DNA of 64,000 nucleotides from Escherichia phage anhysbys. Positions 39,503 through 56,200 of the stretch are shown here, in pieces; position 1 is the stretch's first letter, and each line of letters opens with the position of its first letter. The notes below the pieces were generated by a model. That model searched no databases, had not been told where the DNA came from, and saw nothing but the letters and a program-made list of their open reading frames with translations. The position numbers and the translations under genes are program-made. Location: sequence record NC_052656.1, one strand, 5' to 3'.

Positions 39503-40111
39503 ATGGAAGAGAAGATTTGGGATGGTAAAGATCCTTTAGAAGTTGGACACGTAGCGCGTGTCAAAAAATCTACTACAGGTCCTGGTTTTTCTGGTTTGTA
39601 TCATATACCAGAAGAAGGTCAGCACGTTACAATTTTGGCTCGTGACAAACAAAACGGAGCAACGCCTGTGTGGATTGTTCGTTGGTATGACAAAGATCTT
39701 AACATTTGCTTGTCACCTATTATGGCTCATTTGCTGGAAGCCCCTTGCTCTGAAGAAGCTCTAATTTTTGTTTCGGCTTTTCAGAAAGCCACAGGTTTAA
39801 CATTAGATGCAAAAGATGTGCAAAAAGCATTTGACATTATTCAGGAAGACAACGATACTACATCTAACGACGAACTGGTTGAAGTTACAATCTTATCTTC
39901 AGCAGATATCCGAGAGATTGATAATTGTGATTTTCCAATCACATTTAAAATGTCGCAGAAAGACATGCAGTCATCTGGAAGTTGTTTTGGTATACCTCGT
40001 TGGTTTTTTGATTCTATCAAAAATTCTACTACAGAGGGATCAGACTATGATCAAGATGACGTGCTTTGGTTCTTAAAAAACCGAGAGATTGTTCTCTCAC
40101 CACTTAAATAA
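39503..40111 (+). CDS. hypothetical protein
   Basis: ORF track 202 aa; AGGAGG RBS. Confidence 0.6.
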   Translation: MEEKIWDGKDPLEVGHVARVKKSTTGPGFSGLYHIPEEGQHVTILARDKQNGATPVWIVRWYDKDLNICLSPIMAHLLEAPCSEEALIFVSAFQKATGLTLDAKDVQKAFDIIQEDNDTTSNDELVEVTILSSADIREIDNCDFPITFKMSQKDMQSSGSCFGIPRWFFDSIKNSTTEGSDYDQDDVLWFLKNREIVLSPLK

Positions 40112-40121
40112 GGAGAAATAA

Positions 40122-40223
40122 TGGTTTCATTTATCGTAGGTGTAGTTGTAGGCTATCTTATTAACAAATATCAAGACGTTATCACGGCAAAAGTAAAAGA
40201 CATTTTAGACTCATCTAAATAAT
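40122..40223 (+). CDS. tiny membrane protein (~33 aa)
   Basis: Own translation MVSFIVGVVVGYLINKYQDVITAKVKDILDSSK; AAGGAGA RBS. Confidence 0.3.
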
Positions 40224-40274
40224 CTATCAAAGCTGCATCTTCAATAGGTGCAGCCTTTTAAAAGGAGATATGGC

Positions 40275-40448
40275 ATGACTAAACGCACTGATTTTAAATG
40301 TATGCATTGTGGGAAATCTTTTGGGGATCATCAAGCTCGCACATTCAACTGTCCACGTAAAGGTCGCGGAAATTTTAAAGGTTTTAATCCCGCACATGTT
40401 TATTCTCCAGATTACGATAAGCCAGAAGAAGAAAAATTTGTTATTTAA
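40275..40448 (+). CDS. small zinc-ribbon protein
   Basis: Track frame 40248-40448; start refined to MTKRTDFKCMHCGKSFGDHQARTFNCPRKG. Confidence 0.5.
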   Translation: MTKRTDFKCMHCGKSFGDHQARTFNCPRKGRGNFKGFNPAHVYSPDYDKPEEEKFVI

Positions 40449-40460
40449 TAAGGAGGTCAT

Positions 40461-40742
40461 ATGGAACTCGTTCAAGAATTGTATAATGCTTTAGGAGCAA
40501 AAGGAAAAGATTGGCCCGAACATGCGCTTATTGCTATAAGAGACTCCGATGGTGAGATTAAGTTTTCAAGCGTAAGTAAAGAGCACATCGTAGAAACAAA
40601 ACTGGGTATTTACATGCGTGGAACTTATTGCTTATTCAACACCAGAATGGTAGAAGCCCCTGTTATCGAGGATGGAACAAAAGATTGCCCCACAATCGTA
40701 ACAAAATCTGAATATGAGAAGTTTTTCTACGCTAAGGCTTGA
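40461..40742 (+). CDS. hypothetical protein
   Basis: ORF track 93 aa; AAGGAGG RBS. Confidence 0.55.
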   Translation: MELVQELYNALGAKGKDWPEHALIAIRDSDGEIKFSSVSKEHIVETKLGIYMRGTYCLFNTRMVEAPVIEDGTKDCPTIVTKSEYEKFFYAKA

Positions 40743-40782
40743 CACAGAAACAATACTATAGGATAGTGATCCTATCGTAGCA

Positions 40783-40806
40783 ATAGAACCCGCTTCGGCG
40801 GGTTTT
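40783..40806 (+). terminator. rho-independent terminator
   Basis: AACCCGC-TTCG-GCGGGTT + TTTTCAT. Confidence 0.65.
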
Positions 40807-40833
40807 TTCATATCTGTAGCAATAGGAGGTCGT

Positions 40834-41064
40834 GTGTTAAATAAAATCGAAGAAGGTTGTATGGCATTTTTGGTAGATAACCCGTTTCCCTTTATGGTTA
40901 AGGTCCATGTAGGAGAGTATTTAGGTTATGACGAATGGGATTGTAGTATCAATAGTGAAATGCACCACTACCAACCAACAATACTTAAGACGGATCAAAT
41001 GGCGCGTATTACAGTAGAGGATGAATTGATCATTGAGTTATACGAGAGAGCACTACACAAGTAA
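40834..41064 (+). CDS. hypothetical protein
   Basis: ORF track 76 aa (GTG start after AGGAGG; alternative ATG ~40861). Confidence 0.45.
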   Translation: MLNKIEEGCMAFLVDNPFPFMVKVHVGEYLGYDEWDCSINSEMHHYQPTILKTDQMARITVEDELIIELYERALHK

Positions 41065-41107
41065 GCTAGAACCCACCTAAATCGAACAGAGACGCTCTAA
41101 AATAGAA

Positions 41108-41139
41108 AAGGCACCCACTTGGGTGCCTTTGTTTTATTC
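41108..41139. terminator. bidirectional terminator between convergent blocks
   Basis: AAAGGCACCCA-CTT-GGGTGCCTTT flanked by T-runs on both strands. Confidence 0.65.
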
Positions 41140-41406
41140 TTCGTTAGATTGCGTCTCAGACGCGTTAAATTCGGTTTCAGTACAACTTGCTAAGTAACTT
41201 ATATTTTGCATCACTACAACTACAGGTGTTTGAAGTTTATCTTCTAGCCCCGCAGCCACTTGAGCCAAGGCATTATCAATATTTGATTTCCTAACGCCTG
41301 TTCCATGTCCTGTTGCCAAGTAAAGATTACCTTCCCCTTTTTGTGTAGCATTGGCAAAGTAGTAAACGTAATGTGCAAGGTAGTAATCACGGATTTCTTC
41401 AGTCAT
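41134..41406 (-). CDS. hypothetical protein
   Basis: ORF track 90 aa; AGGAGAA RBS; last gene before bidirectional terminator. Confidence 0.55.
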   Translation of the reverse strand: MTEEIRDYYLAHYVYYFANATQKGEGNLYLATGHGTGVRKSNIDNALAQVAAGLEDKLQTPVVVVMQNISYLASCTETEFNASETQSNEE

Positions 41407-41424
41407 TTTATTCTCCTAATAAGA

Positions 41425-41442
41425 AAGGGGCCGAAGCCCCTT
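41425..41442 (-). other. intercistronic CUUCGG-type hairpin
   Basis: Minus-strand AAGGGGC-UUCG-GCCCCUU between Sir2 gene and 41134 gene. Confidence 0.55.
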
Positions 41443-41449
41443 GAGTGGT

Positions 41450-42265
41450 TTATTTGTTTAAGTGGTCTTCGACCATTTTAATGAAACCTTCATTGCTGAA
41501 GGCTGTTGCAGCTTTTTCTCGGTAAACAAAAACTCCACGATCTTCATAGAGAAGTGTTTCTTCGTAATTAACTCCAGGGTTAACTACAACCATTTTTGTA
41601 CCCATACTAAGTGCAGGAAATAATTCCCAATTAAAATTGATAATTTGGTTTGAACATCCTACTACTACAACCAAATCTTGCATGGTCAAAGTATCGAACA
41701 AGTGAGCCATATCTGCATACAAAGGTGCAGCCTCACCAAAAAATACAACATTAGGCTTCACCCAGTTATAATCATCTATGTTTATACTATTGTAACCAAT
41801 ATCTACCAGTGTTTTGTAATCTCCAGGATGCATACGGTAAACTACTTCAGGAAGATAGCCGTGTACGTGAATAACAGAATCTCTGTCTACACCTGCTCGC
41901 TCTAGTAGATCATCAACGTTTGTTGTCAAGTTTACTATTTGGTTAGGATATTCCTTAAACCACTTTGCTATTTGAATATGTGCAGCATTAGGTTGTACAT
42001 CTTTAAGCTCAACACGTCTTTTGTTATAAAATTCGTGTGTTTTGGCATACAAATCCATACCGTTCTCGTCTACACCACCGACCACTGGAAGATCTGGAGA
42101 TGTTCTAACACGATAACCTGCTTGGAAAGCTCCAATATCGCAGACCTCTTCTAAATCATATTCTTCCCATAAAGCACGACCACTATCTGTGTCTGTTCTA
42201 AATGTTCGAATCCCACTGTCTGCACTTAAACCTGCACCGCTTACAAAAATCACTCGTCTTGGCAT
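41450..42265 (-). CDS. SIR2-family NAD-dependent protein
   Basis: N-terminal VIFVSGAGLSADSGIRTFR resembles sirtuin GAG(I/L)S..GIP.FR NAD-binding motif; 271 aa. Confidence 0.7.
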   Translation of the reverse strand: MPRRVIFVSGAGLSADSGIRTFRTDTDSGRALWEEYDLEEVCDIGAFQAGYRVRTSPDLPVVGGVDENGMDLYAKTHEFYNKRRVELKDVQPNAAHIQIAKWFKEYPNQIVNLTTNVDDLLERAGVDRDSVIHVHGYLPEVVYRMHPGDYKTLVDIGYNSINIDDYNWVKPNVVFFGEAAPLYADMAHLFDTLTMQDLVVVVGCSNQIINFNWELFPALSMGTKMVVVNPGVNYEETLLYEDRGVFVYREKAATAFSNEGFIKMVEDHLNK

Positions 42266-42793: not shown

Positions 42794-43447
42794 CTATACC
42801 AGACTTTGTAGGTATTTGTCAAGGGCTTCTTGATCGCCTTGACAAACATAGCAACGGAAGTCTTGAGCCGAAGGTTGTTTATTTTCATCCCAGTCCCAAT
42901 AAACATTACCCTTATAACGTGAACCAGGAAACTCAAAAGAGGCTGTATGTGTAATGTATCCTGGGCCACCAGTGAAATCACAGAATGAGAATTGGGGGTA
43001 TGCCGCCTTTACTGCCTCAATAAACCAAGCTTTACGATCTAAAGCTTCATTGATGCTATACGCATGTCTCTCCATTTCTTCCCACGTTTTCCAGACACTT
43101 CTCTCATCAGGAGAAAAGACAAGCCATTCTGGAAGGTATAGAGTGTCATAGTAATCATCATATTCGATCTCGGAGGCGCACGAAGCTGACTCCTCCAGTT
43201 TTGAGTAATCAAAAGCAGAATATACCCACCAACCATCTTCCAGTAACGCTTTGATAGGGACGAAGCCTTTATCAGCATATTGATCGAATTGTTTGACACG
43301 GTGGCTTGTGCAGTCTTCAAACTCACATTCTAAACGATATGCACCTTTTCGACGAGCCTCAAGACCGTGTGTACTGAAAATAACAACACTTCCTTCACCA
43401 TCATTACGATCTACTTGATAAGCAACCACTGGTTTTGAATTTGACAT
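42794..43447 (-). CDS. hypothetical protein
   Basis: ORF track 217 aa. Confidence 0.6.
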   Translation of the reverse strand: MSNSKPVVAYQVDRNDGEGSVVIFSTHGLEARRKGAYRLECEFEDCTSHRVKQFDQYADKGFVPIKALLEDGWWVYSAFDYSKLEESASCASEIEYDDYYDTLYLPEWLVFSPDERSVWKTWEEMERHAYSINEALDRKAWFIEAVKAAYPQFSFCDFTGGPGYITHTASFEFPGSRYKGNVYWDWDENKQPSAQDFRCYVCQGDQEALDKYLQSLV

Positions 43448-44130
43448 TATTTCTCCTTATCTAGAAGATTGTTAGACAAAAACACTGCACGAGCAAAACC
43501 ACGTGCGGTTAGTGATCTAAGTTGTTTTGTTTTTGCACTAGCTCCACCTAAGCTTTTCCAACCCCAGAAGCAGCCTATATGATCTACTGGTTTCTTAACT
43601 GGTTGAACAAAACCATTGCCGTGCCAAATACAAGTTTTCTTTGTATACCCATCACGGGTAGGCATTTTAGGATGAAAGCTTCCTTCCTCTTCAAACAAAT
43701 ACCCACCATACTCATAAGGATCAAAGTAAAAATCGGGTTTACGCCATAAGGTTGAAAGTTTACCTACTGGGTTCTCAATCATCCAAGGAACATTATATTT
43801 GTTACCCAAAGCTTCCACTACACGAATATTAGCTAAAGCTTCATCCAATTCCTCTGTGCTGCGTTCGTGTTTGCTACCACTACCTGCTAACATAGTGCAA
43901 GGTGGAAATCCAAAAATAATATCGGGTTTAGGTATCCCATGATCTTCAGGGTTGAATGTAGAATCTATCCAGGCATTCACATAGGTTATGTTTGGGTGCT
44001 CCATCCTAACCTCGTATTTACCGTGATCCCCTTCATCAGCGTTTACACAAAAACACTTGTGACCTGCTTCGGCATAACGTAACACCATGATCCCAGATCC
44101 GTCAAACATAGACAAAACTGTTTTACTCAT
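43447..44130 (-). CDS. C5-cytosine methyltransferase-like protein
   Basis: Start refined to MSKTVLSMFDGSG (motif I-like F.G.G), FGFPPCT (PC motif IV-like), IENPVG (ENV motif VI-like); short for a complete MTase. Confidence 0.5.
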   Translation of the reverse strand: MSKTVLSMFDGSGIMVLRYAEAGHKCFCVNADEGDHGKYEVRMEHPNITYVNAWIDSTFNPEDHGIPKPDIIFGFPPCTMLAGSGSKHERSTEELDEALANIRVVEALGNKYNVPWMIENPVGKLSTLWRKPDFYFDPYEYGGYLFEEEGSFHPKMPTRDGYTKKTCIWHGNGFVQPVKKPVDHIGCFWGWKSLGGASAKTKQLRSLTARGFARAVFLSNNLLDKEK

Positions 44131-44536
44131 TACCCCTCCATTCAAGACAAGCCATAACTTTACGCCAATCACTTTCTGTAAGAAAAATCTCGTTTGCTTT
44201 CTTCCACAAATCTAAATCGTGAAGGGTTGGAATACGATATGTTAGTTCACAGAATCTATGCTCTTCTTCTGTAATATAACCAAAATGCAGAGCCACATCG
44301 TGAAACCAACACCAACCATGCATCTCTCGAACAACATGGTCATGTTGAGACATTATTTTATGCCGTAAACCTAACCAACAAGGAACAGATACTTTAGTAG
44401 TCTTTAATCTGTGATCAACAGTATTAGAGTATTCAATAATAGCTGTCAGTTTCAATCGTGCTTTTTCTAAATCCTCATGCGTCACTTTGAAATAACTTTC
44501 TGAAAGATATCCACACATATTAATAACCTCCTTCAA
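44123..44536 (-). CDS. hypothetical protein
   Basis: ORF track 137 aa. Confidence 0.55.
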   Translation of the reverse strand: MKEVINMCGYLSESYFKVTHEDLEKARLKLTAIIEYSNTVDHRLKTTKVSVPCWLGLRHKIMSQHDHVVREMHGWCWFHDVALHFGYITEEEHRFCELTYRIPTLHDLDLWKKANEIFLTESDWRKVMACLEWRGNE

Positions 44537-45461
44537 AAGGCTTTACTACATGTTGATTAGCTTTAAAACGTTCAACATAGTCGTTTTCGCCCATGTTTTC
44601 ATATAGCTTAATAACAACATAAAAGTTTTCCCAAGCATATTCCCTAAACCAACCACTAGTGATGGATGTGCAGACTTTAGATAAAGCCATTATAAAACTT
44701 TGCTTAGGGGTTGGACCTCCGATCTCTCCACCGAAAGGAATTTGTGAACGTTCCAAAGCCAAAACACACGCTTCTTCATAAACACCTAACAGGCGCACAT
44801 GTTTTGGTTGAGCAAAAAACTTTTCTTTGCTGGTCATAACTTCACTTCCATCTTTCATATAAGATTTATATGCTGGGGCATCCATTACCGCGATTGCTTC
44901 ATGGATAGAATCATGATCATAAACATACGGAACCTCATCACCTTTAAAAAAGTCTTTACTTTTTACGTTTAAGTTCGGATGAGAGTAAGTGTATGTTTCT
45001 TTCTCACGCAACTCATAAATACTCTTAAGATTTTCTGGGATCTTTGCGCCAAGTGACCGCATGAAATGAATATCTTTCATAGTTTTAAAGAAGTGAGGAC
45101 TATCCTTTTTAAAACGATGACTCATTTTAAGAAGGTAGAGCACATCTAAAGGAGCAACAACATGTCCAGCATAAGTTCGACGAACATCATCAGAATCTTC
45201 ACAATAACTAATCAAAGCTTCTGTGCTATCTCCTTGAGAAGCAATATCGTATTCCAAATGTGCACCAGCTATCATTTTGACATGGCCTTTGTTCCCTTTA
45301 CGTTCTACAAGTTCAACAAACTCATCTTGAGAGAACATTTTTGATAATTCTTCCCACTCTTGTTCTGTACACAGGTAATCTAAATCTACACAAGGGCGAT
45401 ACAAGTCTTTTCCCATGTCCATAGCATGAATTTGTAATGCACGGCTACCAATTAACACCAT
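44520..45461 (-). CDS. hypothetical protein (possible nucleotidyltransferase-like N-terminus)
   Basis: ORF track 313 aa; N-terminal LIGSRAL...DMGKD...DLDYL loosely resembles GS..D.D motif; TTGACA-17-TAAACT promoter upstream. Confidence 0.55.
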   Translation of the reverse strand: MVLIGSRALQIHAMDMGKDLYRPCVDLDYLCTEQEWEELSKMFSQDEFVELVERKGNKGHVKMIAGAHLEYDIASQGDSTEALISYCEDSDDVRRTYAGHVVAPLDVLYLLKMSHRFKKDSPHFFKTMKDIHFMRSLGAKIPENLKSIYELREKETYTYSHPNLNVKSKDFFKGDEVPYVYDHDSIHEAIAVMDAPAYKSYMKDGSEVMTSKEKFFAQPKHVRLLGVYEEACVLALERSQIPFGGEIGGPTPKQSFIMALSKVCTSITSGWFREYAWENFYVVIKLYENMGENDYVERFKANQHVVKPFEGGY

Positions 45462-45474
45462 AATATTTCTCCTC

Positions 45475-45520
45475 TATTGGTTGATAGGTTAAGTTTATCA
45501 AGCTTCCAGATTCCTGTCAA
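45475..45520 (-). promoter_or_regulatory. candidate promoter (minus strand)
   Basis: Reverse complement TTGACA-17-TAAACT upstream of gene 44520-45461. Confidence 0.45.
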
Positions 45521-45524
45521 TAAA

Positions 45525-45544
45525 AAACCCGCCGAAGCGGGTTA
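45525..45544 (-). terminator. rho-independent terminator (minus strand)
   Basis: Minus-strand AACCCGC-TTCG-GCGGGTT + TTTTTATT. Confidence 0.6.
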
Positions 45545-45551
45545 TTATTTA

Positions 45552-45824
45552 CTAACACATTGAGGAAGAAGAGATCCAAACACCTCTTGTGGTTAAACCA
45601 TTTTCATCCAACTCTACACCATAATCTTCACAAATGAAATCAATATAGTGATCTGCGGCTGGCGTTCCTGTAGGGTAATAAGTTTCTCCGTTACCGTAGT
45701 CACCTATCCAAGCTTGTTCCTGAAACTGTTCACAAAGTTCTTCAATTTCCTTACGAAACTTTCTTTGTGCTTGTTCCATCTCTTTAACTTTCTTTTTTAT
45801 CAGCAGTTCGCCTTCAGACTCCAC
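45552..45824 (-). CDS. small acidic protein with C-terminal GVWISSSSMC
   Basis: ORF track 90 aa; terminator hairpin downstream. Confidence 0.55.
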   Translation of the reverse strand: MESEGELLIKKKVKEMEQAQRKFRKEIEELCEQFQEQAWIGDYGNGETYYPTGTPAADHYIDFICEDYGVELDENGLTTRGVWISSSSMC

Positions 45825-45833
45825 AATCTCTCC

Positions 45834-46052
45834 TTAACAGCTACTACTGTGCCAAACGCCTTGAGAATTAACGACGAAACCATCATCACCTTCACCATAA
45901 CAAGAAGAGGATTGCCAATCTTCAAAACAGATTGCGTCATTTTCTAAACTAAGACCAAAACCAGCATCTTCAGCTTCTTTTGTAAGTTCGTCCACTAAAG
46001 CCATAATAGCTTGGGCTTTTTCAGTTAATTCTTCAACATTACGATCACTCAT
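45834..46052 (-). CDS. small acidic protein with C-terminal GVWHSSSC
   Basis: Track frame 45834-46094; start refined to MSDRNVEEL after AGAGGAGAAA. Confidence 0.5.
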   Translation of the reverse strand: MSDRNVEELTEKAQAIMALVDELTKEAEDAGFGLSLENDAICFEDWQSSSCYGEGDDGFVVNSQGVWHSSSC

Positions 46053-46360
46053 TAGTATTTCTCCTCTGGTTGGAAAACTGAACGACAGGCCCACATAGAA
46101 GCTTCTTTCAACTTAGTCTTTGCTATTGAAATTTGGTCAAGGCGGGTGGATATATTGGTAGACTCTTCCAAATCTTCACAATCATCCAGTTCAGCCCACA
46201 ATTCAGACATTAGAGCATCAAAGATTAATCCTAATCGAACTTCAGCATCTTTAATAGCATTCACTTTACCAATTTTGTCATCGGTATGCGGTTTATAACC
46301 TTTGATATCTTCGATTCCCACTTTACCTCCTATTAACAACTTAAAGAAGATGGATGCCAA
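46052..46360 (-). CDS. hypothetical protein
   Basis: ORF track 102 aa. Confidence 0.5.
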   Translation of the reverse strand: MASIFFKLLIGGKVGIEDIKGYKPHTDDKIGKVNAIKDAEVRLGLIFDALMSELWAELDDCEDLEESTNISTRLDQISIAKTKLKEASMWACRSVFQPEEKY

Positions 46361-46530
46361 TTTGTTCCAGTATTCTCATTTTCATCTTCTGGATCATAAT
46401 AACCTCCCATCCCATATTCAGGGGAGAAACTGAAACCTTCACCAGTCTCGTCTGCTAACTGTTCTGCTTCCGCTAAAGCCTCATAAGCTGCTTTTACGGC
46501 TTCTTCTACTGTTTTAAACTTGGTCGTCAT
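46333..46530 (-). CDS. small acidic protein with C-terminal NWHPSSLSC
   Basis: ORF track 65 aa. Confidence 0.5.
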   Translation of the reverse strand: MTTKFKTVEEAVKAAYEALAEAEQLADETGEGFSFSPEYGMGGYYDPEDENENTGTNWHPSSLSC

Positions 46531-46804
46531 AAAATTTCTCCTCTCCTAAAGACATGTTGACATGAAATGCACGATATGTAAATTCGTTGTCCGTTGTGTT
46601 TGAATAAAACTCAAATTGAACAACACCGTCTTGAGAAGACAGATACATGCCAATTTGAACTGTTCCTTCTGGTACCAGGTAAGCATACTCTGGACGTAGT
46701 GTTACATTGTAAAAATAAAGTTCCCCAACACCCATTTCATCCCAAGCTTCCCAAGCGGTAACGAAGTTACTTTCAAAACTTGTTACTGATCCGAACTCTG
46801 CCAT
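46514..46804 (-). CDS. hypothetical protein
   Basis: ORF track 96 aa. Confidence 0.55.
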   Translation of the reverse strand: MAEFGSVTSFESNFVTAWEAWDEMGVGELYFYNVTLRPEYAYLVPEGTVQIGMYLSSQDGVVQFEFYSNTTDNEFTYRAFHVNMSLGEEKFYDDQV

Positions 46805-47295
46805 AAAACCTCCTCAATCTTGTAGTTTGACTCCATCTCCAACACATTTCCACGAACGTCTCTCCGAAGAAAGGCATAAGCTTTATTAGGTATTGTAGAC
46901 TCATATTTAACCATATCTGGCACAGCAAAAGATACTACTACTCCTGCTGGGCTTCTGTCAAGAGCCTTATTAATATTTCTAAGGATATCGTTAGCCAAAA
47001 TTTCTGCCAATTCTCCAAGAACGGTTTCGGTTATATCTTTATATCCCATTAAGTATTTGTTGATATCTTTCATCTCTGTATTGTTCAGAGTATAATCCAA
47101 AGGATAGAAATTCAAAGCGGAGTCACTTTTATGTGTCCACATGAAATGCACCCGATCCGAGCAGAATCGTAACCCTCTTTGAAGAATATCTTCTACAACA
47201 GGCAGAATTTCTTTTGTCACATCATTAACCATGTTGTAATCTAAGATTTCTGCCAAGTTTGTTCTTTGTTCACCACGTTTACGTTTAGGAATCAC
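46783..47295 (-). CDS. hypothetical protein
   Basis: ORF track 170 aa. Confidence 0.55.
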   Translation of the reverse strand: MIPKRKRGEQRTNLAEILDYNMVNDVTKEILPVVEDILQRGLRFCSDRVHFMWTHKSDSALNFYPLDYTLNNTEMKDINKYLMGYKDITETVLGELAEILANDILRNINKALDRSPAGVVVSFAVPDMVKYESTIPNKAYAFLRRDVRGNVLEMESNYKIEEVLWQSSDQ

Positions 47296-47890
47296 TTGTT
47301 ATTGCCCTCATTACCAAAGGTCGTAGAAAATCGTAAATCTCTTGTTTTGTTTTCCCACGAATGTTTAAACAAGGAACATTATTGGCTTTAGCTATCTTCC
47401 AAGCCGTAGCTGTTCCACCTTTTGCATCTCCATGTTTATCAGTATTAGCACAAGCCAACAAGAAACATGATGGAGCAGGATTCTCCAAATCTCTACCTAA
47501 CACTTGATGCACATTACGTTGGTGCAATTTTCTAGCACCCTGCTTAAGCTTTTCATAGGCTGGGTGAACATCTTTGATCCATTGCACAGAGATAGCATAG
47601 TTCATTGTATCTGGTTTTGCAAGAACAATAACATCCCCTGGAATCTGATTACCTTTGAAATTTTCCCAAGGAACATAAATCTCCTTGTTAGTAGGATTTT
47701 CAGACTCTTGGACACCTGTTTCAAAAGCAGAATCACTACCCTCTGCCTTCCCAGACCTTAATTTAAACCCAAGGTTTGAAAGCCATTTCCCTATGCCTAC
47801 CATCAAAGCCCACTCTTCTTCGGATATGTCTCTACTTCCAACTCCCGTATAGAACAGTTCTGCCATAATCACCTCAACAAGTAATTTCAA
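47285..47890 (-). CDS. DprA/Smf-like Rossmann-fold protein
   Basis: TGVGSRDIS..., RSGKAEGSDSAFETG, GGTATAWKIAKANNVPCLNI resemble DprA/SLOG-type nucleotide-binding fold (by eye). Confidence 0.5.
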   Translation of the reverse strand: MKLLVEVIMAELFYTGVGSRDISEEEWALMVGIGKWLSNLGFKLRSGKAEGSDSAFETGVQESENPTNKEIYVPWENFKGNQIPGDVIVLAKPDTMNYAISVQWIKDVHPAYEKLKQGARKLHQRNVHQVLGRDLENPAPSCFLLACANTDKHGDAKGGTATAWKIAKANNVPCLNIRGKTKQEIYDFLRPLVMRAITSDS

Positions 47891-48182
47891 AAGGTGTATA
47901 GGGTTCCGTATTTCTCATGATCCAAGGACTGCTAGGATTGCTCGGATCATAAGGGCCAAAAGGTTTTATGGTAGGTTGTGTTTCTTTCTTCTGAATCTCT
48001 TCAAAAATACGACGAAGTTCAGAATATTCTTGATCCACCATAAGATTCGGTGCATCTGATTCTACAGCTTGCAGGTTATCTTCCTTAAGAACAATCTCAC
48101 GAACAAGATTAACATCTTCTGTTTCTAAGATAACTTCTTTACGGATATTACCTACACTTTGAATAATTGTAATCTTATACAT
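47874..48182 (-). CDS. hypothetical protein
   Basis: ORF track 102 aa. Confidence 0.5.
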   Translation of the reverse strand: MYKITIIQSVGNIRKEVILETEDVNLVREIVLKEDNLQAVESDAPNLMVDQEYSELRRIFEEIQKKETQPTIKPFGPYDPSNPSSPWIMRNTEPYTPFEITC

Positions 48183-48925
48183 TAATCCTCCTCAAGAGTT
48201 GAATAAAATTGAAGACCACCGTCCATATCGAAATAAGCAAATGTTAAGTTATTATTGAACACAGATCCAGTATCCATATAAACACGATTCGCATTGATAA
48301 TAGGTGTTTTTACATAAGAGTGTCCATGAAACACATAATCCACACCCATCACAACAGGAAGTTTCATTCCCTCTTTAGCACAATCCACCATATCTCTGTC
48401 CCACATAAGTGCTTCAGCAAAACGGTTTTCCTGTGTTTTTGTCATCTTCGAAGTGTATTCTGGAATATCTGTTACAGGGAGATATTCCAAAGAAGACGGA
48501 TACCCACCATGAATAAACGCAAGTTTCATGCCTCTGTAGTTAACAATGAGAACAACAGGTAAATCTTCTGTCATCATTGCTAAGGCTGTAGCTCCTTCTT
48601 CACCACATTCTTCAAAGACCGTATATCCTCCATTTTGATACCAACACTCGTAGTAGCTACGATCTCCTTCCAGCATACCTTTAATCATCATGTCTTCATG
48701 ATTGCCACGAATAGCGTAGCGATTGTGTTTACGAGTAAATTCTAAAACACAACGAAAATTTTGCTTTCCACGGTCAGTAAGATCTCCTAGAGATACAACC
48801 ACATCTGTATCTCGGATACCTAACTTTGCCTTTCCTTTTTCATACAAATTATAACAACCGTGTAGATCTCCAATTATAAAAAGATCTTGATCGCTTTTAA
48901 CAGTAATTTCTCTGTGTATGATCAC
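48182..48925 (-). CDS. Ser/Thr protein phosphatase (calcineurin-like metallophosphoesterase)
   Basis: GDLHGC, GDLTDRG, GNHE signature motifs in order. Confidence 0.8.
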   Translation of the reverse strand: MIIHREITVKSDQDLFIIGDLHGCYNLYEKGKAKLGIRDTDVVVSLGDLTDRGKQNFRCVLEFTRKHNRYAIRGNHEDMMIKGMLEGDRSYYECWYQNGGYTVFEECGEEGATALAMMTEDLPVVLIVNYRGMKLAFIHGGYPSSLEYLPVTDIPEYTSKMTKTQENRFAEALMWDRDMVDCAKEGMKLPVVMGVDYVFHGHSYVKTPIINANRVYMDTGSVFNNNLTFAYFDMDGGLQFYSTLEED

Positions 48926-49251
48926 TTATCCTCCTCAAAATCTAAGAAAATAAAAATATTCACCTTTCCTTCAATCTCTTGTTCTAAAACAAGATCGGCA
49001 AATTCTGCATAAGCTTTCTCTTCAACTTTTTCAATATGTTCTGCGGCATCTTTAAAAGGCGTATCCCCATCCACCTTTACTAATAAGAAAAGAGATCGCA
49101 TTTCGACGTTTTTACTGTTACGAGGAAGGAAATCTACAGCTTCAACAATTCTCCAACCCAAATAGCCAGGGGTTTTATGAATCTCCCCTAAATACTTTTC
49201 TAAGATTTTACGACCCTCGTCGATAAGGGCTTGTTCTGTAGTAATTTCCAT
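48922..49251 (-). CDS. hypothetical protein
   Basis: ORF track 109 aa. Confidence 0.55.
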   Translation of the reverse strand: MEITTEQALIDEGRKILEKYLGEIHKTPGYLGWRIVEAVDFLPRNSKNVEMRSLFLLVKVDGDTPFKDAAEHIEKVEEKAYAEFADLVLEQEIEGKVNIFIFLDFEEDK

Positions 49252-49261
49252 TCCTTCCTCC

Positions 49262-49852
49262 TCAAATTATTAACGAAACCGCATGACTAAATCTTGGTTC
49301 AGATATAACCTCTGCTACAGTCACATATGTATCGTGCAGCCAAAAAGATTCTACTCTACAAACACAAATACCGTTGATAATGAAATCTACACAGGCTTTA
49401 TTATTTTCGCACACTTGTTGACTATAAACAACCCCTAAAGAGTCATAAAGTGATCTCACTGTTGCTACCATTTCATCTGTTTCGTCTTCCTGTGAAACAA
49501 AGAAAACGAATACAGACAAGTTATTAGCGAAAGTATTGCTATTCTCTACTTCAACCGACTTACAAGGTAAAAAGGAGTAATATTTACCGTTAGGTATCAA
49601 TTTCGCCTCAACCTGGTTAAGTATGCTTTGAGATGGTTTTGTTACATAAAAAAGATTTTCTGTTGGGTTTTCAACATTGCTCCTTACTATGCAACGAGTG
49701 GGGTTCGAAGGATCAAAAACATGATCGAAATCGACACACACAGGTAAGTTAACAACTTTAAACTTTTTGCTAAGAATGCTTACTGCTGTAAAAATCAAAC
49801 CAGCATTTATTTTGCCAGTGAAAGTTGAACGCATAACTACTCCTCGGATCAT
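49262..49852 (-). CDS. hypothetical protein
   Basis: ORF track 196 aa. Confidence 0.55.
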   Translation of the reverse strand: MIRGVVMRSTFTGKINAGLIFTAVSILSKKFKVVNLPVCVDFDHVFDPSNPTRCIVRSNVENPTENLFYVTKPSQSILNQVEAKLIPNGKYYSFLPCKSVEVENSNTFANNLSVFVFFVSQEDETDEMVATVRSLYDSLGVVYSQQVCENNKACVDFIINGICVCRVESFWLHDTYVTVAEVISEPRFSHAVSLII

Positions 49853-50043
49853 TCTACCAAAGAGAATTCCGCCTCTTCTAGGTAGATTACAGACCTTGTT
49901 GCATGATATTTAACGCTCCAGAAATTACCTTCGCGCCGTAAAAGTATCTCATTCACATCAAGATTGCTTAGAAAAACCATATAACTTAAAGCTTGTTGAC
50001 GCGTTGAGAATTGTTTCTCTAAAAGTTCTTCTCCGCTCTGCAT
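49849..50043 (-). CDS. hypothetical protein
   Basis: ORF track 64 aa. Confidence 0.5.
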   Translation of the reverse strand: MQSGEELLEKQFSTRQQALSYMVFLSNLDVNEILLRREGNFWSVKYHATRSVIYLEEAEFSLVE

Positions 50044-50089
50044 AATCCCTCCTTAAAAATACTCCCTCCGAAAAGGGAGTATAAGTATA

Positions 50090-50293
50090 TCACGTAGTTG
50101 TTATGTTGTCTTCTTGGATACTAGAATCCACTTCTGCAAACATATCTTCTGCACTGTAATTATTTCCAGTCCAGCGTGATAAAAGGATAGCACCAATCTC
50201 TTTTGCATGAGATTCGGACTCCGCATAAACGTTAGTCCCAGTGTCACCTTTTTTCTTTTCATGTGCATAAATGCAGTAATAATTGTAAGCCAT
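50090..50293 (-). CDS. hypothetical protein
   Basis: ORF track 67 aa. Confidence 0.5.
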   Translation of the reverse strand: MAYNYYCIYAHEKKKGDTGTNVYAESESHAKEIGAILLSRWTGNNYSAEDMFAEVDSSIQEDNITTT

Positions 50294-50529
50294 TAATCTT
50301 CCCAGTCATTGCCCTCGGTAGAGTGAACTAAAGCTCGCACGATACCACCGTAATCTACTGCCTGATTTGCAGCATGTTCGGCATAAACTTCAATGGCTTT
50401 TTTGAAGAAAAGAGCAGTAGCTGCTTCAATATTATCCATTTCGCCATCTACGTCAGTAGAAAGTGAAAGGTTGAGGCTTTCATCTACTTCATCAAAATCA
50501 ATAGCCACTGTCATAATTAGTTTACCCAT
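50293..50529 (-). CDS. hypothetical acidic protein
   Basis: ORF track 78 aa. Confidence 0.5.
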   Translation of the reverse strand: MGKLIMTVAIDFDEVDESLNLSLSTDVDGEMDNIEAATALFFKKAIEVYAEHAANQAVDYGGIVRALVHSTEGNDWED

Positions 50530-50541
50530 AGTTCACACTCC

Positions 50542-51051
50542 TTAAACAAAATAAAATGGTTGAGAGAGGCCCAAACGATTCTTTGGGTCGTATACATACC
50601 AAGCGTATGCTGTTTTATCTGTTCCACCTGCAACAAACGAAGGCCGTTCTGAAAGGACTATAAGGTTTGTTGGTGGATTCTTTTGATGGAACTCTCGTCG
50701 TTTCTTTGACTCCAAGAAGCCCAACCGAAGAAGATAAATACAAACATCCGCCTCTTTTAAGCTCTTTTCCAAGAACTCCATTGCTAACTTAAATGGAGGA
50801 TTTGTGATTATAATGTCGGGACGATTTTCCCATTCATGACTAAAATAATCTTTACCTTCTTCAAGTTCGCAATATTCTGAACCTTCAGGAAAATGGCGAT
50901 AAATCGCTTCAGCTTCACCTCTGCAAGGTTCTGCAAAAACCCAACCTTCTTCCTTTAGATTTTTGAAATCTATAACACTAAACAAACTATTGATTGCTTT
51001 TTGCGGTGTCGGATAATAATCGCTCGTTGGGCGATCATAATCTAATGCCAT
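50542..51051 (-). CDS. putative DNA N6-adenine/N4-cytosine methyltransferase (small, NPPF motif)
   Basis: IIITNPPF catalytic tetrapeptide; YYPTP near N-terminus; 169 aa. Confidence 0.55.
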   Translation of the reverse strand: MALDYDRPTSDYYPTPQKAINSLFSVIDFKNLKEEGWVFAEPCRGEAEAIYRHFPEGSEYCELEEGKDYFSHEWENRPDIIITNPPFKLAMEFLEKSLKEADVCIYLLRLGFLESKKRREFHQKNPPTNLIVLSERPSFVAGGTDKTAYAWYVYDPKNRLGLSQPFYFV

Positions 51052-51469
51052 CTAAAATCTCCTCTTTTGTAATATTATCCAACTCTTTAAAGGATGAAAT
51101 CTCGTTTAATAATCCTATTTGATCAGCTTCTAGAGGATAAGTGTTTTTATCTGTTTTTCTAGACAGAATATCTTCAACAAACTTATCAATAGCCAAAGAA
51201 GAATCATAAAATTTTAAAAGTTGGTAATCCATAGGAGATATTTTGTCATCTCTTAGAAATATTTCTAACATGTTTTCAGGAGTATCATGGTTTAGTTTAT
51301 GTTCACCAAAAATATTAACTTCGTAAACATCTTTGCCAAACCAACGTTTCTTCTTTTCAACAGTATAGGTTTTTTCCACCAGACCATCTAAACAGTTTCT
51401 TGCCCTCTTACATGTTTGACGGTAAGAGTGGATAGCGCCTTCAACAAACTTAGCAGGAACTTGTAACAT
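51035..51469 (-). CDS. hypothetical protein
   Basis: ORF track 144 aa. Confidence 0.55.
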   Translation of the reverse strand: MLQVPAKFVEGAIHSYRQTCKRARNCLDGLVEKTYTVEKKKRWFGKDVYEVNIFGEHKLNHDTPENMLEIFLRDDKISPMDYQLLKFYDSSLAIDKFVEDILSRKTDKNTYPLEADQIGLLNEISSFKELDNITKEEILDGIRL

Positions 51470-51493
51470 TATTAATCTCCTATGTTTAAGAAA

Positions 51494-51509
51494 TGCCCCC
51501 GAAGGGGCA
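51494..51509 (-). other. intercistronic CUUCGG-type hairpin
   Basis: Minus-strand UGCCCC-UUCG-GGGGCA after HslV-like gene. Confidence 0.5.
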
Positions 51510-51514
51510 GTTTG

Positions 51515-52207
51515 TTAAATAGCGGTTCCTTCGAAATCCGCCACATTTACGAGATTAATATTTTCAGATTTAGAAGTCAAGTTGTTTTCTGCAACAGATT
51601 TTTCTTCAGTATCCGCCTCGTTACCTGCCACGTTACGAGGTTCTTCTTCACCGTAGGGATTACCGAATTTCAAAAGATTGATCAATTCTTCTTTGGAGAA
51701 GTTTTCTAAATCATCATCTGTTAATTCAATAATCTCGTCTTGTTCTTCAATAAATGTTTCACCACCAGAAAAAGCATCTCGCTTTTTAGCTACTTCCATA
51801 GCCTGTTCTGGTGTTGCTCCTGCATCAAGAGCAGCTAAAGCAAAGTCTGACCCGCTTCCTACCGCATAATATTCTTCATCAATCGGATATGCACGTGTTG
51901 GGTTGTTACCTTCGTGCAGGAAAATACGTCCGTCTGGATGAACAACAAGTGCAATAAACTCTTCATCTTCTTTATCTGGATCAGAGTGAATCATCAAACC
52001 AGGGACAGCATCACGTGCTGCTTCGCACTGTAGATTTTGTTCAAACCATTGAAAGAAAGAAAGCACGGAGGTCAGACGACCAGCACCACCTACAAGGTAA
52101 TCTCCAATTTTTCGGACCTTTTTGAAATTAATAGAATCTACACGTCCACCAAAAGTTACCTTACCGTCACTCAAAATCTTATTTTTGGTCGCAATAATTG
52201 TCGTCAC
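51515..52207 (-). CDS. HslV-like N-terminal-threonine peptidase with acidic C-terminal extension
   Basis: MTTIIATKNK (Thr after Met), KKVRKIGDYLVGGAG, YAVGSGSDFALAALDAG match HslV/ClpQ blocks from memory. Confidence 0.65.
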   Translation of the reverse strand: MTTIIATKNKILSDGKVTFGGRVDSINFKKVRKIGDYLVGGAGRLTSVLSFFQWFEQNLQCEAARDAVPGLMIHSDPDKEDEEFIALVVHPDGRIFLHEGNNPTRAYPIDEEYYAVGSGSDFALAALDAGATPEQAMEVAKKRDAFSGGETFIEEQDEIIELTDDDLENFSKEELINLLKFGNPYGEEEPRNVAGNEADTEEKSVAENNLTSKSENINLVNVADFEGTAI

Positions 52208-52742: not shown

Positions 52743-53501
52743 TTAAATAAACACTTCAGTAATCAGTTTAGACAAACGTCCACGTTTATTATCGTCCGTT
52801 GTCAGTTCAACATATCCAATAAAATCTACAATTGGCTCACGAACACCTTCTTCATTCTCTGGATATAAAAGTTCCAAAATTTGATGCAGACCATTGCTAC
52901 GTTTTTTAATTGCATATGTCTGGCGAACATCGCCTAATACAATAACATGCGTATTAATACCTGCACGTTCAATAAGAAGTTTAAGTGTTTCTGTTGACAT
53001 AAGTTGTGCTTCGTCAATAATGACGATTGTATTATCCAGGGTAGCCCCCAACAAATAGTTAGGAATATTCAATTCGATCTTACCTGATCCAATATCGTTT
53101 TCCAATTTGTTGGCTGTCATGAATTGCTGGAAAATACGTTTTGTAGATTCATAGTGTGCTGCTAGTTTATCTGTTTTATCCCCAGACAAGAAACCAATCT
53201 GGTCATCTCCGACTTCAGTAGGGTTCTTGATAAAAAGTAGTTTACGGAAGTCTCCTGAACGAAGCATCTGCAAAGCTTTCCATAAAGCAACAGAGGTTTT
53301 ACCAGTCCCTGCCGGAGCATTTACAACAGTCAGATCATTCCAAATCATGCTTTGAACAATCTTATTTTGGTCCCCTTCAGGCATAAATTCATCTAAACGG
53401 TAATCGTCATTACCTACCGCTTTTGCTGCATAACGGCTTTCAATCTTTGCTGAATTAGCCAGTTTCTGCCGTTGTGTTTTAGCTGCGGTTTTATTTCCCA
53501 T
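52743..53501 (-). CDS. phoH: PhoH-like ATPase
   Basis: Walker A NAPAGTGKTS; Walker B VIIDEAQ; start refined to MGNKTAAKT (AAAGGAG RBS) to clear hairpin and lysozyme. Confidence 0.8.
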   Translation of the reverse strand: MGNKTAAKTQRQKLANSAKIESRYAAKAVGNDDYRLDEFMPEGDQNKIVQSMIWNDLTVVNAPAGTGKTSVALWKALQMLRSGDFRKLLFIKNPTEVGDDQIGFLSGDKTDKLAAHYESTKRIFQQFMTANKLENDIGSGKIELNIPNYLLGATLDNTIVIIDEAQLMSTETLKLLIERAGINTHVIVLGDVRQTYAIKKRSNGLHQILELLYPENEEGVREPIVDFIGYVELTTDDNKRGRLSKLITEVFI

Positions 53502-53518
53502 AGTAGCACTCCTTTTAG

Positions 53519-53536
53519 AAGGGGCCGAAGCCCCTT
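53519..53536 (-). other. intercistronic CUUCGG-type hairpin
   Basis: Minus-strand AAGGGGC-UUCG-GCCCCUU between lysozyme and phoH. Confidence 0.55.
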
Positions 53537-53538
53537 TA

Positions 53539-54039
53539 TTAGTTGTAAGCATCTAAAGTTCCAGAAGTCAGAACTTTAATTACTCGTTCAGCACGGTTTG
53601 GCGTCTGGCTATACCATCGGCTTTTACGCATGTTTTTACCTGCTTGAGTATAATATGCATTGCTGATTAAAGTCAAGCTATTTTGAAACCCTTCAGCACC
53701 TTTTAACCCCAACTGGAAAACCATGTTGATTATTCCCAATTTACGAGTATCACTAACCTTATCATAGATTGGTGATAAGATAGTACTGTTTTTTATGTCT
53801 CTCTTCACTTTTGCAACATCGTCAGCAAAGATTTGACGGGCTTCTTTTTCTGTGATAACTCCATTAGTCTTACGACCAAGAAGATTATCTAAGATTTGAA
53901 TAGCCTTTGCTTTATCTTTTATTTTAGTCAGAAGGTGTCCTATGCCGACTGTCCAATAACCAAGATGGTCTTGATAAACAGTAAGCTTCAGTCCTTCATC
54001 GACTCGTAGCATATCAAACTCATCTACTACTTTAGCCAT
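53539..54039 (-). CDS. T4-type lysozyme (endolysin)
   Basis: MLRVDEGLKLTVYQDHLGYWTVGIGHLLTK ... INMVFQLG ... KSRWYSQTPNRAERVI closely parallels T4 gene e. Confidence 0.9.
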   Translation of the reverse strand: MAKVVDEFDMLRVDEGLKLTVYQDHLGYWTVGIGHLLTKIKDKAKAIQILDNLLGRKTNGVITEKEARQIFADDVAKVKRDIKNSTILSPIYDKVSDTRKLGIINMVFQLGLKGAEGFQNSLTLISNAYYTQAGKNMRKSRWYSQTPNRAERVIKVLTSGTLDAYN

Positions 54040-54201: not shown

Positions 54202-54462
54202 TTACTCCGCAATTTGAGCCATGAGATCACGCAGTTCGGTAAAACCGCCTACGTATGTTACCTCCCCGTTCACTTCAGACAGAATTTGTGGAAATGTGCG
54301 TGGAGGAACTCCGGTAAGATCAACAACTGTTTTAGTCATTGATTCTAAATCATAGTCTTGATCAAGACTTAAATATTCAAACTGTTTATTGCGCATGGTT
54401 AATAGTTGTTTTGACATTTCGCAAAATTGACAGTTAGGTTTACCAAAAATTACAAATTCCAT
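54202..54462 (-). CDS. glutaredoxin/NrdH-like redoxin
   Basis: CQFC active site near N-terminus (FGKPNCQFCEMSK); 86 aa; adjacent to nrdAB. Confidence 0.75.
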   Translation of the reverse strand: MEFVIFGKPNCQFCEMSKQLLTMRNKQFEYLSLDQDYDLESMTKTVVDLTGVPPRTFPQILSEVNGEVTYVGGFTELRDLMAQIAE

Positions 54463-55304
54463 TACCTCTCCTTATTAAGTAATACTGCTAAAGACTGTTC
54501 AATACCTTTATTTAAATCTGATTTTGTAAGATAGTGACTGGTTACTAATTGTGACTTCACCGGACGTGCTGCTGGAGCATTATAGGTTGAAGCTGATACC
54601 GCCGATATCTTAACAGGTTCTGGCATCTGTGTCAAGATCTTTTCCGCAAACTCCGCCCAAGAAATAAAATGGCTTCCTGCAAAATGGTAAGTCTTAACAG
54701 ACCTTGACCAACCTGTTTTTAATACTTCAAAAATAGCTTCTGCTAAATCTGGAGCATATGTTGGACAAGAGAACTGATCAGCAACAACAATAAAATCACG
54801 TTGTCCATCATTATAGCGAGACAACATGGTTTTTAGAAAGTTATTTCCAAATTCGCTATATACCGAGGCTGTTCGAATAATATATGCATTTGGGTTAACT
54901 CCTCGCACCATTTTTTCACCGAGTTCTTTCGTATACCCATAATTGTTTATTGGGTTAGGTGTAGTATCTTCAAAAATAGGATGAGAATAATTAAAAATAT
55001 AATCTGTAGAAATATGCACAAAATCAATTTTAAGTTTGCTGCACACTGCCGCAATATTTGCAGGTCCATACGCATTAACAGCCAAAGCAGTAGCAAAATC
55101 ATGTTCTGCTTTATCTACAGCCGTATAAGCAGCGCAGTTAATAACACCGTCTACATAATCTTCAACAATAGCGTTTCGCACAGCTTCAAAATTTGTAATA
55201 TCTACACGTTCTTTAGGATAAATTAAAGATACATTCGAAGGAACCACTTTACGTAAAGCTTGTCCCAGTTGTCCATTACCACCTAATACCAGATATGTTA
55301 GCAT
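54462..55304 (-). CDS. rmlD: dTDP-4-dehydrorhamnose reductase-like (RmlD family)
   Basis: N-terminal Rossmann LVLGGNGQLGQAL; 280 aa; overlaps rmlC by 7 nt. Confidence 0.75.
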   Translation of the reverse strand: MLTYLVLGGNGQLGQALRKVVPSNVSLIYPKERVDITNFEAVRNAIVEDYVDGVINCAAYTAVDKAEHDFATALAVNAYGPANIAAVCSKLKIDFVHISTDYIFNYSHPIFEDTTPNPINNYGYTKELGEKMVRGVNPNAYIIRTASVYSEFGNNFLKTMLSRYNDGQRDFIVVADQFSCPTYAPDLAEAIFEVLKTGWSRSVKTYHFAGSHFISWAEFAEKILTQMPEPVKISAVSASTYNAPAARPVKSQLVTSHYLTKSDLNKGIEQSLAVLLNKER

Positions 55305-55864
55305 ACACCCTCACTACGTAGCTGTTGAAAAGATTTAGCCATTGCATCTTTTGTTGATAAAATAGGTTTAAAATCTTCATCAAAAATCATATCAAAGCCC
55401 CAATCGATCCCTATATCAGGATCATCCCAACGTAAACTTTGTTCACTAGAAGGGTCGTATGGAGTTGTGCATTTGTATTCAAAGATAGCATCCATACTCA
55501 AAACTATAAAACCGTGTGCCAAACCAGGTGGAAGCCAAAACTGCGTATGGTGTCGTGCACGAAGAACAACACCGTCCCAAGCACCGTAAGTTGGACTATC
55601 TTTACGTAAATCTACAGCGAAATCCAATACTTCTCCACTTACACAACGAACAAGCTTACCTTGCGGGTTGTTTGTTTGGAAGTGCATTCCTCGCAAAACA
55701 CCGAAGTTTGATTTAGACATGTTATCTTGAACGAAAGTTTGTCTACCAATAATATCTTCGTATTTTTGTTCATTGTATGTTTCTAAAAAGAAACCACGAT
55801 CATCTTTATAAACGTCTGGTTTGATAATTACCGCACCTTCAATTTTTGTTTTTTCTACTTTCAT
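55298..55864 (-). CDS. rmlC: dTDP-4-dehydrorhamnose 3,5-epimerase (RmlC cupin)
   Basis: DDRGFFLETY, LRGMHFQ, KLVRCVSGEVLDFAVDLRKDSPTYG, PPGLAHGF match RmlC. Confidence 0.85.
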   Translation of the reverse strand: MKVEKTKIEGAVIIKPDVYKDDRGFFLETYNEQKYEDIIGRQTFVQDNMSKSNFGVLRGMHFQTNNPQGKLVRCVSGEVLDFAVDLRKDSPTYGAWDGVVLRARHHTQFWLPPGLAHGFIVLSMDAIFEYKCTTPYDPSSEQSLRWDDPDIGIDWGFDMIFDEDFKPILSTKDAMAKSFQQLRSEGVC

Positions 55865-55873
55865 TTTCTCTCC

Positions 55874-56200
55874 TTACCAGACATGTTGAGAAATAATAGT
55901 TTCCGTTTTAATGTTATATTTTTCAAGTAGCTCTGCATAGGCTTCTTTTGCATTCTCATTTAATTGCTCAAGATCTACAGCTACGCTTCCTTCTCCGCCT
56001 TCTAAATAAATACCATATATGCAATAAGACTCATCAGCATCGTAGAAAGGAGAGATGCGACTTAAGTCCAGACCTTCTTGTAAGAACCAGTTAAAATCTC
56101 CGTCAAATTCTTCTTCAATTCTAGGATCTTCTCCTACAGCCTCTTCCCACTTATTAAAAGGTGCACCCTGTAACATACGCCATTCGATATCAATACCCAT
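55874..56200 (-). CDS. hypothetical acidic protein
   Basis: ORF track 108 aa. Confidence 0.55.
   Translation of the reverse strand: MGIDIEWRMLQGAPFNKWEEAVGEDPRIEEEFDGDFNWFLQEGLDLSRISPFYDADESYCIYGIYLEGGEGSVAVDLEQLNENAKEAYAELLEKYNIKTETIISQHVW

Follow-up and report, generated by a model that had tools for sequence, protein, structure and literature searches.

Two minus-strand open reading frames (ORFs) of Escherichia phage anhysbys (NC_052656.1) were analysed in this study. Both lie in a 64,000-nucleotide stretch of the genome that is referred to here as the window, and they had been proposed from the sequence to encode two DNA methyltransferases of different classes. This proposal was borne out, since motifs, PHROGs matches and homologues agree on a C5-cytosine enzyme for the first (ORF A) and an N6-adenine enzyme for the second (ORF B). 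Both genes are intact, belong to conserved families, retain their catalytic residues and are modelled with the fold expected for their class. In all likelihood, this phage, a relative of Escherichia phage phAPEC8, thus carries two independent, intact, orphan methyltransferases, a compact C5-cytosine enzyme and a gamma-class N6-adenine enzyme. The coordinates predicted for the two ORFs were exact, and each is preceded by a Shine-Dalgarno site:

43447-44130, minus strand: ORF A, predicted compact Dcm-like C5-cytosine DNA methyltransferase, 227 amino acids (aa) from an ATG (phrog_757, homologues, predicted fold)
44135-44139, minus strand: Shine-Dalgarno sequence GGAGG of ORF A, read directly in the sequence, 4 nt before the ATG at 44130
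50542-51051, minus strand: ORF B, predicted compact gamma-class N6-adenine DNA methyltransferase, 169 aa (phrog_799, motifs, homologues)
51059-51064, minus strand: Shine-Dalgarno sequence GAGGAG of ORF B, read directly in the sequence, 7 nt before the ATG at 51051

The start codons chosen in the original prediction are supported by these Shine-Dalgarno sites and agree with those in public annotations. A GTG at 44172, which lies 14 codons upstream and would extend ORF A to 241 aa, was rejected as start codon because GGAGG serves the ATG at 44130 and because members of the ORF A family begin at the position of this ATG. Both ORFs overlap the stop codon of the preceding gene and therefore form part of densely packed operons on the minus strand. 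Unrelated genes fill the ~6.4 kb that separate ORF A from ORF B, so that these are two separate genes and not one locus or system. No restriction-enzyme or nuclease-like partner adjoining either ORF was detected with Pfam, PHROGs or PADLOC. As the neighbours are free of nuclease-like matches and the partners vary between phage lineages, both genes are regarded as orphan. Directly downstream of ORF A, a 217-aa ORF (42794-43447, minus strand; phrog_8514, function unassigned, no Pfam or PADLOC match) begins on the final base of the ORF A stop codon, which makes translational coupling of the two probable. Genes of the ORF A family have other downstream neighbours in other phage lineages, and the 217-aa ORF is therefore no conserved partner.

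The region 43000-51500 (8.5 kb) shares 99.4% nucleotide identity with phages phAPEC8_ev052, ESCO13 and tuntematon, and it is also matched by phAPEC8 and about 60 further records of Phapecoctavirus (Stephanstirmvirinae). Counterparts with 100% protein identity are public for ORF A in BI-EHEC and ukendt and for ORF B in ESCO5 and others. In the related records the labels given to the two genes are 'DNA methyltransferase', 'DNA methylase', 'Dcm' or 'DNA N-6-adenine methyltransferase'. Public knowledge thus already covers both genes, how they are annotated and the activity of homologues with 48-50% identity.

The compact C5-cytosine methyltransferase family of ORF A

Residues 1-225 of ORF A match the PHROGs family phrog_757 'DNA methyltransferase' (E 1.8e-84). 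The original prediction had regarded the short ORF as a possibly degenerate or repurposed enzyme. In a large protein database 870 homologues were found, essentially all of 215-245 aa, and an exhaustive profile search returned 1,862 clusters at 50% identity (761 with E <= 1e-10), nearly all 200-260 aa in length and covering the profile from end to end. Family-wide, this length is therefore the normal architecture and not a truncation. Conservation was assessed in an alignment of 39 close homologues (alignment A1) and in a diverged set of 61 family members that are 30-58% identical to ORF A. The following elements were located on the minus strand:

44092-44106, minus strand: motif I FDGSG (F9-G13), S-adenosylmethionine (SAM)-binding loop; D10, G11, S12 and G13 invariant in A1
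43894-43908, minus strand: motif IV FPPCT (F75-T79) with the catalytic cysteine C78, invariant in the 61 diverged members
43765-43776, minus strand: motif VI ENPV (E119-V122) with the ENV-type glutamate; E119 and P121 invariant, N120 nearly so, in the 61 diverged members
43537-43722, minus strand: insert of residues ~137-198 in the place of the target-recognition domain; Y162, K164, T166, W169 and P177 invariant or nearly so

FDGSG aligns with motif I of M.HaeIII. Together with FPxCT, ENP and the C-terminal TKQLRSLTxRGFARAV it is invariant or nearly so among the 39 close homologues. The catalytic cysteine and the SAM-binding motif are thus both kept. By sequence comparison alone the family is remote from curated models. 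ORF A had no Pfam match at E <= 0.1, PF00145 included, and no NCBIfam match; its N-terminal half gave weak PADLOC matches to type II and DruM methylases (E 1e-4 to 4e-3). Its best sequence match in the PDB is marginal (M.HaeIII, E 0.08, over motif I and the Pro-Cys motif), and the family profile found no match among PDB sequences.

In classical C5 enzymes a mobile catalytic loop follows the Pro-Cys motif. The AlphaFold model of ORF A has a mean predicted local distance difference test score (pLDDT) of 89.4, and its only weak stretch, residues 81-90, lies directly past this motif. Foldseek searches of the PDB with this model placed the catalytic domains of DNMT3B and DNMT3A at the top (E ~6e-8 to 5e-6, probability 1.0), and M.HaeIII was also among the matches. 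Both DNMT3A and DNMT3B have an unusually small target-recognition region, and the putative one of ORF A is small as well. In the structural alignments, however, the identity to ORF A is only 14-18%, and DNMT3 enzymes act as dimers or tetramers, have regulatory domains and target CpG.

It had also been suggested that ORF A may lack a target-recognition domain. This holds insofar as the region is reduced, with only ~60 residues (137-198) between motifs VIII and IX. It does not appear to be absent, because these residues are conserved and stand at the position of the domain. In the AlphaFold model the insert sits between the strand 134-136 and the C-terminal helices. It carries K164/K165, the equivalents of K175/K176 of the Dcm enzyme of phage K42, and we infer that it has a role in DNA recognition.

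This K42 enzyme is a tested homologue and the trigger of retron Ec86. Phage K42 belongs to the Drexlerviridae and is 95.4% identical to KarlJaspers/Bas06 (bioRxiv 10.1101/2023.08.16.553469). In the same study, four of four K42 escapers of retron Ec86 had a disrupted 711-bp 'dcm' gene, and expression of K42 Dcm raised the 5-methylcytosine (5mC) content of the multicopy single-stranded DNA (msDNA) as measured by liquid chromatography-mass spectrometry. The quadruple mutant C82A/E128A/K175A/K176A gave no such rise. The authors superposed their AlphaFold model of K42 Dcm on DNMT3A and described the enzyme as likely toxic when overexpressed (bioRxiv 10.1101/2023.08.16.553469). We located the 711-bp gene in KarlJaspers as bas06_0055, annotated as 'Dcm-like C5 cytosine methyltransferase'. 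Its product aligns with ORF A from end to end at 50% identity (BLASTP, E 1e-71). The mutated residues were mapped via the homologue of phage tuinn, counted from the internal Met that yields a 711-bp gene. In this numbering C82, E128 and K175/K176 align with C78, E119 and K164/K165 of ORF A. On the basis of the identity to Bas06 and the matching catalytic residues, ORF A can be placed by sequence in a family for which C5 methyltransferase activity has been demonstrated in one homologue. The two enzymes belong to one compact family with the same C, E and KK positions and a DNMT3A-like predicted fold. They differ in that the K42/KarlJaspers protein has 236 aa and comes from a 51-kb siphovirus, whereas ORF A, whose activity and target are predicted, has 227 aa and comes from a 150-kb myovirus.

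Against this background, the idea that ORF A is a degenerate or repurposed C5 remnant, deprived of its target-recognition domain and no longer able to methylate DNA, is largely refuted and hardly tenable. It draws on the length of 227 aa, as opposed to more than 300 aa in classical bacterial C5 enzymes, and on the missing matches to PF00145 and, for the family profile, to PDB sequences. However, the short form is common to nearly all 1,862 family clusters, and the complete or near invariance of C78, E119 and the C-terminal motif is a clear sign of purifying selection. In addition, the 50%-identical relative is active and makes 5mC, and its mutant containing C82A is inactive.

The compact gamma-class methyltransferase family of ORF B

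ORF B matches phrog_799 'DNA methyltransferase' (E 2.8e-59), and its 247 database homologues are mostly 165-200 aa long. The conserved positions given below refer to the alignment of this family (A2):

51004-51015, minus strand: motif X YPTP (residues 13-16); Y13, T15 and P16 invariant or nearly so
50917-50931, minus strand: motif I EPCRG (E41-G45), SAM binding; E41, P42 and C43 invariant, G45 nearly so
50845-50850, minus strand: D68-Y69, conserved acidic residue of the SAM pocket; D68 nearly invariant, Y69 invariant
50791-50817, minus strand: motif IV DIIITNPPF (D79-F87), catalytic NPPF; T83, N84, P85 and P86 invariant, D79 nearly so

The motif order X-I-IV places ORF B in the gamma class. 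R136-P-x-F139 and W151 are conserved as well; F87 is not, being replaced by Tyr in some family members. The model of ORF B (pLDDT 89.7) shows the catalytic-domain fold of gamma-class enzymes, with lower confidence in the loop of residues ~138-150, which is predicted to face the DNA. With Pfam, only a sub-threshold match to PF13651 (EcoRI_methylase) over the NPPF stretch was obtained (14.7 bits against a cut-off of 26.4). There was no NCBIfam match, and the search of PDB sequences gave no meaningful match. A separate target-recognition domain was not found in ORF B, as the whole protein consists of the 169-aa core, and neither the ORF list nor PHROGs or PADLOC revealed an S-subunit-like gene adjoining it. 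ORF B therefore consists of the catalytic core of an N6-adenine methyltransferase and nothing else. By contrast, a separate recognition domain or subunit is present in M.TaqI, type I HsdM and MmeI, which reach 380-750 aa or more.

In the homologues P0158, P0171, P0190, P0203, P0225 and P0235 a Cys-rich, zinc-ribbon-like insert of ~25-30 residues (CxxC...CxCGG) was observed between the RPSF and TD motifs, at the position of the ORF B loop ~138-150. This insert is a candidate DNA-reading element.

The tested homologue of ORF B, the trigger of Retron-Asa1 and Retron-Squ1, is found in the vequintavirus Bas51. All Bas51 escapers of these retrons were mutated in an 'N6 adenine methyltransferase', and the substitutions D69G, D79G and T83P, rebuilt in a clean background, abolished defence (PMC12548924, PLoS Biology). 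Nanopore sequencing of wild-type Bas51 DNA detected N6-methyladenine (m6A) at GATC, which was almost entirely gone in the T83P phage, and the enzyme was toxic when overexpressed (PMC12548924). Vequintaviruses have two annotated adenine methyltransferases, and therefore the identity of the Bas51 enzyme was checked. Bas51 is phage WalterGehring, and its 177-aa protein bas51_0176 has D69, D79 and T83. The nearby 'glycosidase' bas51_0171 has R87, in agreement with the R87* mutation reported in the same work (PMC12548924). The other vequintavirus methyltransferase (441 aa, beta class, taken from the Bas55 sequence) has C69, G79 and E83 and was rejected as the Bas51 trigger. Compared with the Bas52 orthologue of bas51_0176, ORF B shows 48% identity (E 4e-47), and the Bas51 residues D69, D79 and T83 have their counterparts in D68, D79 and T83 of ORF B, which are conserved family-wide. 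Both proteins thus belong to the same compact gamma-class family and share the residues lost in inactive mutants. The two genes also both adjoin a gene for a protease-like protein, ClpP-like in Bas51 and HslV-like in the window. In contrast, bas51_0176 has 177 aa and ORF B 169 aa, and the predicted DNA-facing loop ~138-150 differs in sequence. By extrapolation from Bas51, GATC is the best guess for the target of ORF B.

Potentially, ORF B could instead be an RNA enzyme that places m6A on rRNA or tRNA, as do methyltransferases of the METTL5/PH1948/TrmM type. The predicted fold alone cannot say whether DNA or RNA is the substrate. However, the m6A at GATC made by the Bas51 homologue and the conservation of the mutated residues speak strongly against an enzyme acting on RNA only, and we consider this possibility very unlikely.

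Two further observations concern the phages compared here. The 441-aa enzyme, a third vequintavirus methyltransferase, is encoded at 63941-65266 of the JeffSchatz/Bas55 record, belongs to the beta class with DPPF at residues 73-76, and lies directly upstream of the Dcm-like gene in Bas55; the annotation of tuntematon lists no counterpart in those parts of its genome that match the window. The 196-aa ORF at 49262-49852 was considered as a counterpart of the Bas51 'glycosidase' co-trigger and rejected, as no similarity was found. In some RefSeq records this ORF is split into two coding sequences named 'histidyl tRNA synthetase', apparently through an error of annotation.

Target sites, restriction sensitivity and possible roles

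E. coli Dam belongs to the alpha class, and E. coli Dcm, with 472 aa and a large recognition domain, is a classical C5 enzyme. ORF A and ORF B are outside the Dam and Dcm protein families, as they do not match the respective Pfam models, but judged from their homologues they probably share the targets of the host enzymes, GATC for ORF B and CCWGG for ORF A. By this analogy, ORF A probably works like Dcm and ORF B like Dam.

Site-limited methylation of rapidly replicating phage DNA is the most economical reading of these data. Both genes appear to be embedded among minus-strand genes that mostly would serve nucleotide and DNA metabolism. With the SAM loop, C78 and E119 in place and a ~60-residue insert instead of a large target-recognition domain, ORF A would make 5mC, probably at Dcm-type CCWGG sites, as its 50%-identical homologue suggests. 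ORF B would make m6A, probably at GATC, as suggested by its 48%-identical homologue. Methylation would follow replication, on new phage DNA as well as on whatever other DNA the cell contains, and the protection gained would be confined to nucleases that recognise these sites. It might also come at a cost, since methylated retron msDNA is a known trigger of retron abortive infection. Host Dam is evidently too slow on Bas51 DNA, because GATC methylation collapses in the T83P mutant.

In the original prediction, the pair was instead expected to provide broad protection against restriction. This is the general expectation for orphan methyltransferases of phages, and non-specific adenine methyltransferases such as M.EcoGII do occur in prophages. 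However, the evidence from related phages points in the other direction. The BASEL study described Vequintavirinae and relatives as 'exceptionally susceptible' to restriction-modification (RM) systems and as seemingly without effective protection; the group was defined to include the phAPEC8 cluster, while the isolates phenotyped were Vequintavirus and phi92-like phages and no Phapecoctavirus. The tested BASEL vequintaviruses carry homologues of both ORF A and ORF B. Two preprints on Druantia address sensitivity to restriction in general terms only, and one of these, later than the BASEL study, places Stephanstirmvirinae together with families targeted by RM systems. Moreover, the Bas51 enzyme is specific for GATC and not a non-specific methyltransferase.

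Site counts over the window were compared with the expectation of a Markov model. CCGG, GGCC, GTAC and CTAG reach only 0.33-0.47 of this expectation, and GGATCC, CTGCAG, CGATCG, GGCGCC, CCATGG, CAGCTG and GCATGC are absent from the 64 kb. A phage with a general shield against restriction would not need such purging of restriction sites, which makes a shield of this kind unlikely. Given the restriction-sensitive relatives and this strong avoidance of restriction-type palindromes, we reject broad protection from host restriction systems as improbable; any protection would be expected at the target sites of the two enzymes only. GATC is the most over-represented 4-mer palindrome (329 copies, compared with 300 expected from the Markov model and 226 from base composition), and CCWGG is not depleted either (94 observed, 87 expected). 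These unpurged sites are the ones that the homologues reportedly methylate. The non-depletion of GATC is compatible with m6A at this site but not diagnostic of it. As an observation on the side, two of the missing hexamers, GGATCC and CGATCG, contain GATC, yet TGATCA occurs in 36 copies and AGATCT in 25.

Several points weigh against site-limited methylation as proposed here. The non-depletion of GATC and CCWGG is expected anyway in an E. coli host that methylates both. The specificities are extrapolated by analogy over 48-50% identity, a distance at which methyltransferases can change their specificity. For K42 Dcm itself, CCWGG is the probable target, as deduced indirectly from msDNA site mutants, from bulk 5mC measured in a dcm+ host and from the analogy to host Dcm; for ORF A, CCWGG is probably the target as well, with less certainty than for K42 Dcm. 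No Pfam or NCBIfam match above threshold was obtained for either ORF. As there is no match to a curated model, and none to PDB sequences for the family A profile, the class assignment rests on motifs, predicted folds and homologues. By sequence search, the PDB holds no structure of either family, and the literature searched contained no methylation data on phAPEC8, Phapecoctavirus or Stephanstirmvirinae.

A further possibility is that the enzymes are active but mainly serve a purpose other than protecting phage DNA, with target sites that may differ from GATC and CCWGG. Methylation of host DNA or of replication intermediates could, for example, influence mismatch repair (MutH), replication, packaging or gene expression. 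As both GATC and CCWGG are methylated by E. coli itself, copying these marks adds little protection in dam+ dcm+ hosts. The toxicity of the Bas51 enzyme in cells and the likely toxicity of K42 Dcm would also fit, as would the conservation of family A at >=60% identity across phages of many hosts. However, the T83P phage of Bas51, nearly devoid of GATC methylation, indicates that the phage enzyme and not host Dam methylates phage DNA. Taken as a whole, we regard these alternative roles as a minor possibility.

Returning to site-limited methylation, it is tempting to speculate that ORF A and ORF B are among the smallest self-sufficient sequence-specific DNA methyltransferases. GATC, CCWGG or other sites might be read with a short loop (ORF B) or a 60-residue insert (ORF A), possibly through dimer formation on the DNA, as in DNMT3. 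In dam+ dcm+ hosts, the benefit might then lie in full methylation of fast-replicating phage DNA and not in evasion of restriction, and the price might be visibility to msDNA-sensing retrons. As a combined proposal this remains tentative, and we consider it rather doubtful that all of its parts hold together.

For practical purposes, retrons that respond to methylated msDNA would be expected to block a therapeutic phage of the phAPEC8 type with both enzymes, those of the Ec86/Eco1 type in the case of the cytosine enzyme and those of the Asa1/Squ1 type in the case of the adenine enzyme. Most restriction systems would be expected to remain effective against the same phage type. The compact size of both enzymes also makes them reasonable subjects for structural study of minimal DNA sequence recognition.

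Neighbouring genes and further observations

The following genes around the two ORFs were assigned by Pfam and PHROGs matches:

41450-42265, minus strand: Sir2-like gene
44520-45461, minus strand: gene for a DUF7277+DUF7275 protein
47285-47890, minus strand: DprA-like gene
48182-48925, minus strand: NinI-like Ser/Thr phosphatase gene
51515-52207, minus strand: HslV-like peptidase gene
52743-53552, minus strand: PhoH-like gene

The cumulative GC skew of the window has its maximum at ~40000-42000, where the skew flips from positive to negative. This flip coincides with the change from plus-strand to minus-strand genes.

Further along the window, an RmlD-like gene (54462-55304; PF04321, E 1.5e-73) and an RmlC-like gene (55298-55864; PF00908, E 1.1e-66) were identified. 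The RmlA and RmlB genes that come next in tuntematon and phAPEC8 are missing, with only small ORFs before NrdB at 56705, and the phage therefore encodes half of the dTDP-rhamnose pathway. The same contiguous junction (window 54462-56704) is present in 18 of 119 related records.

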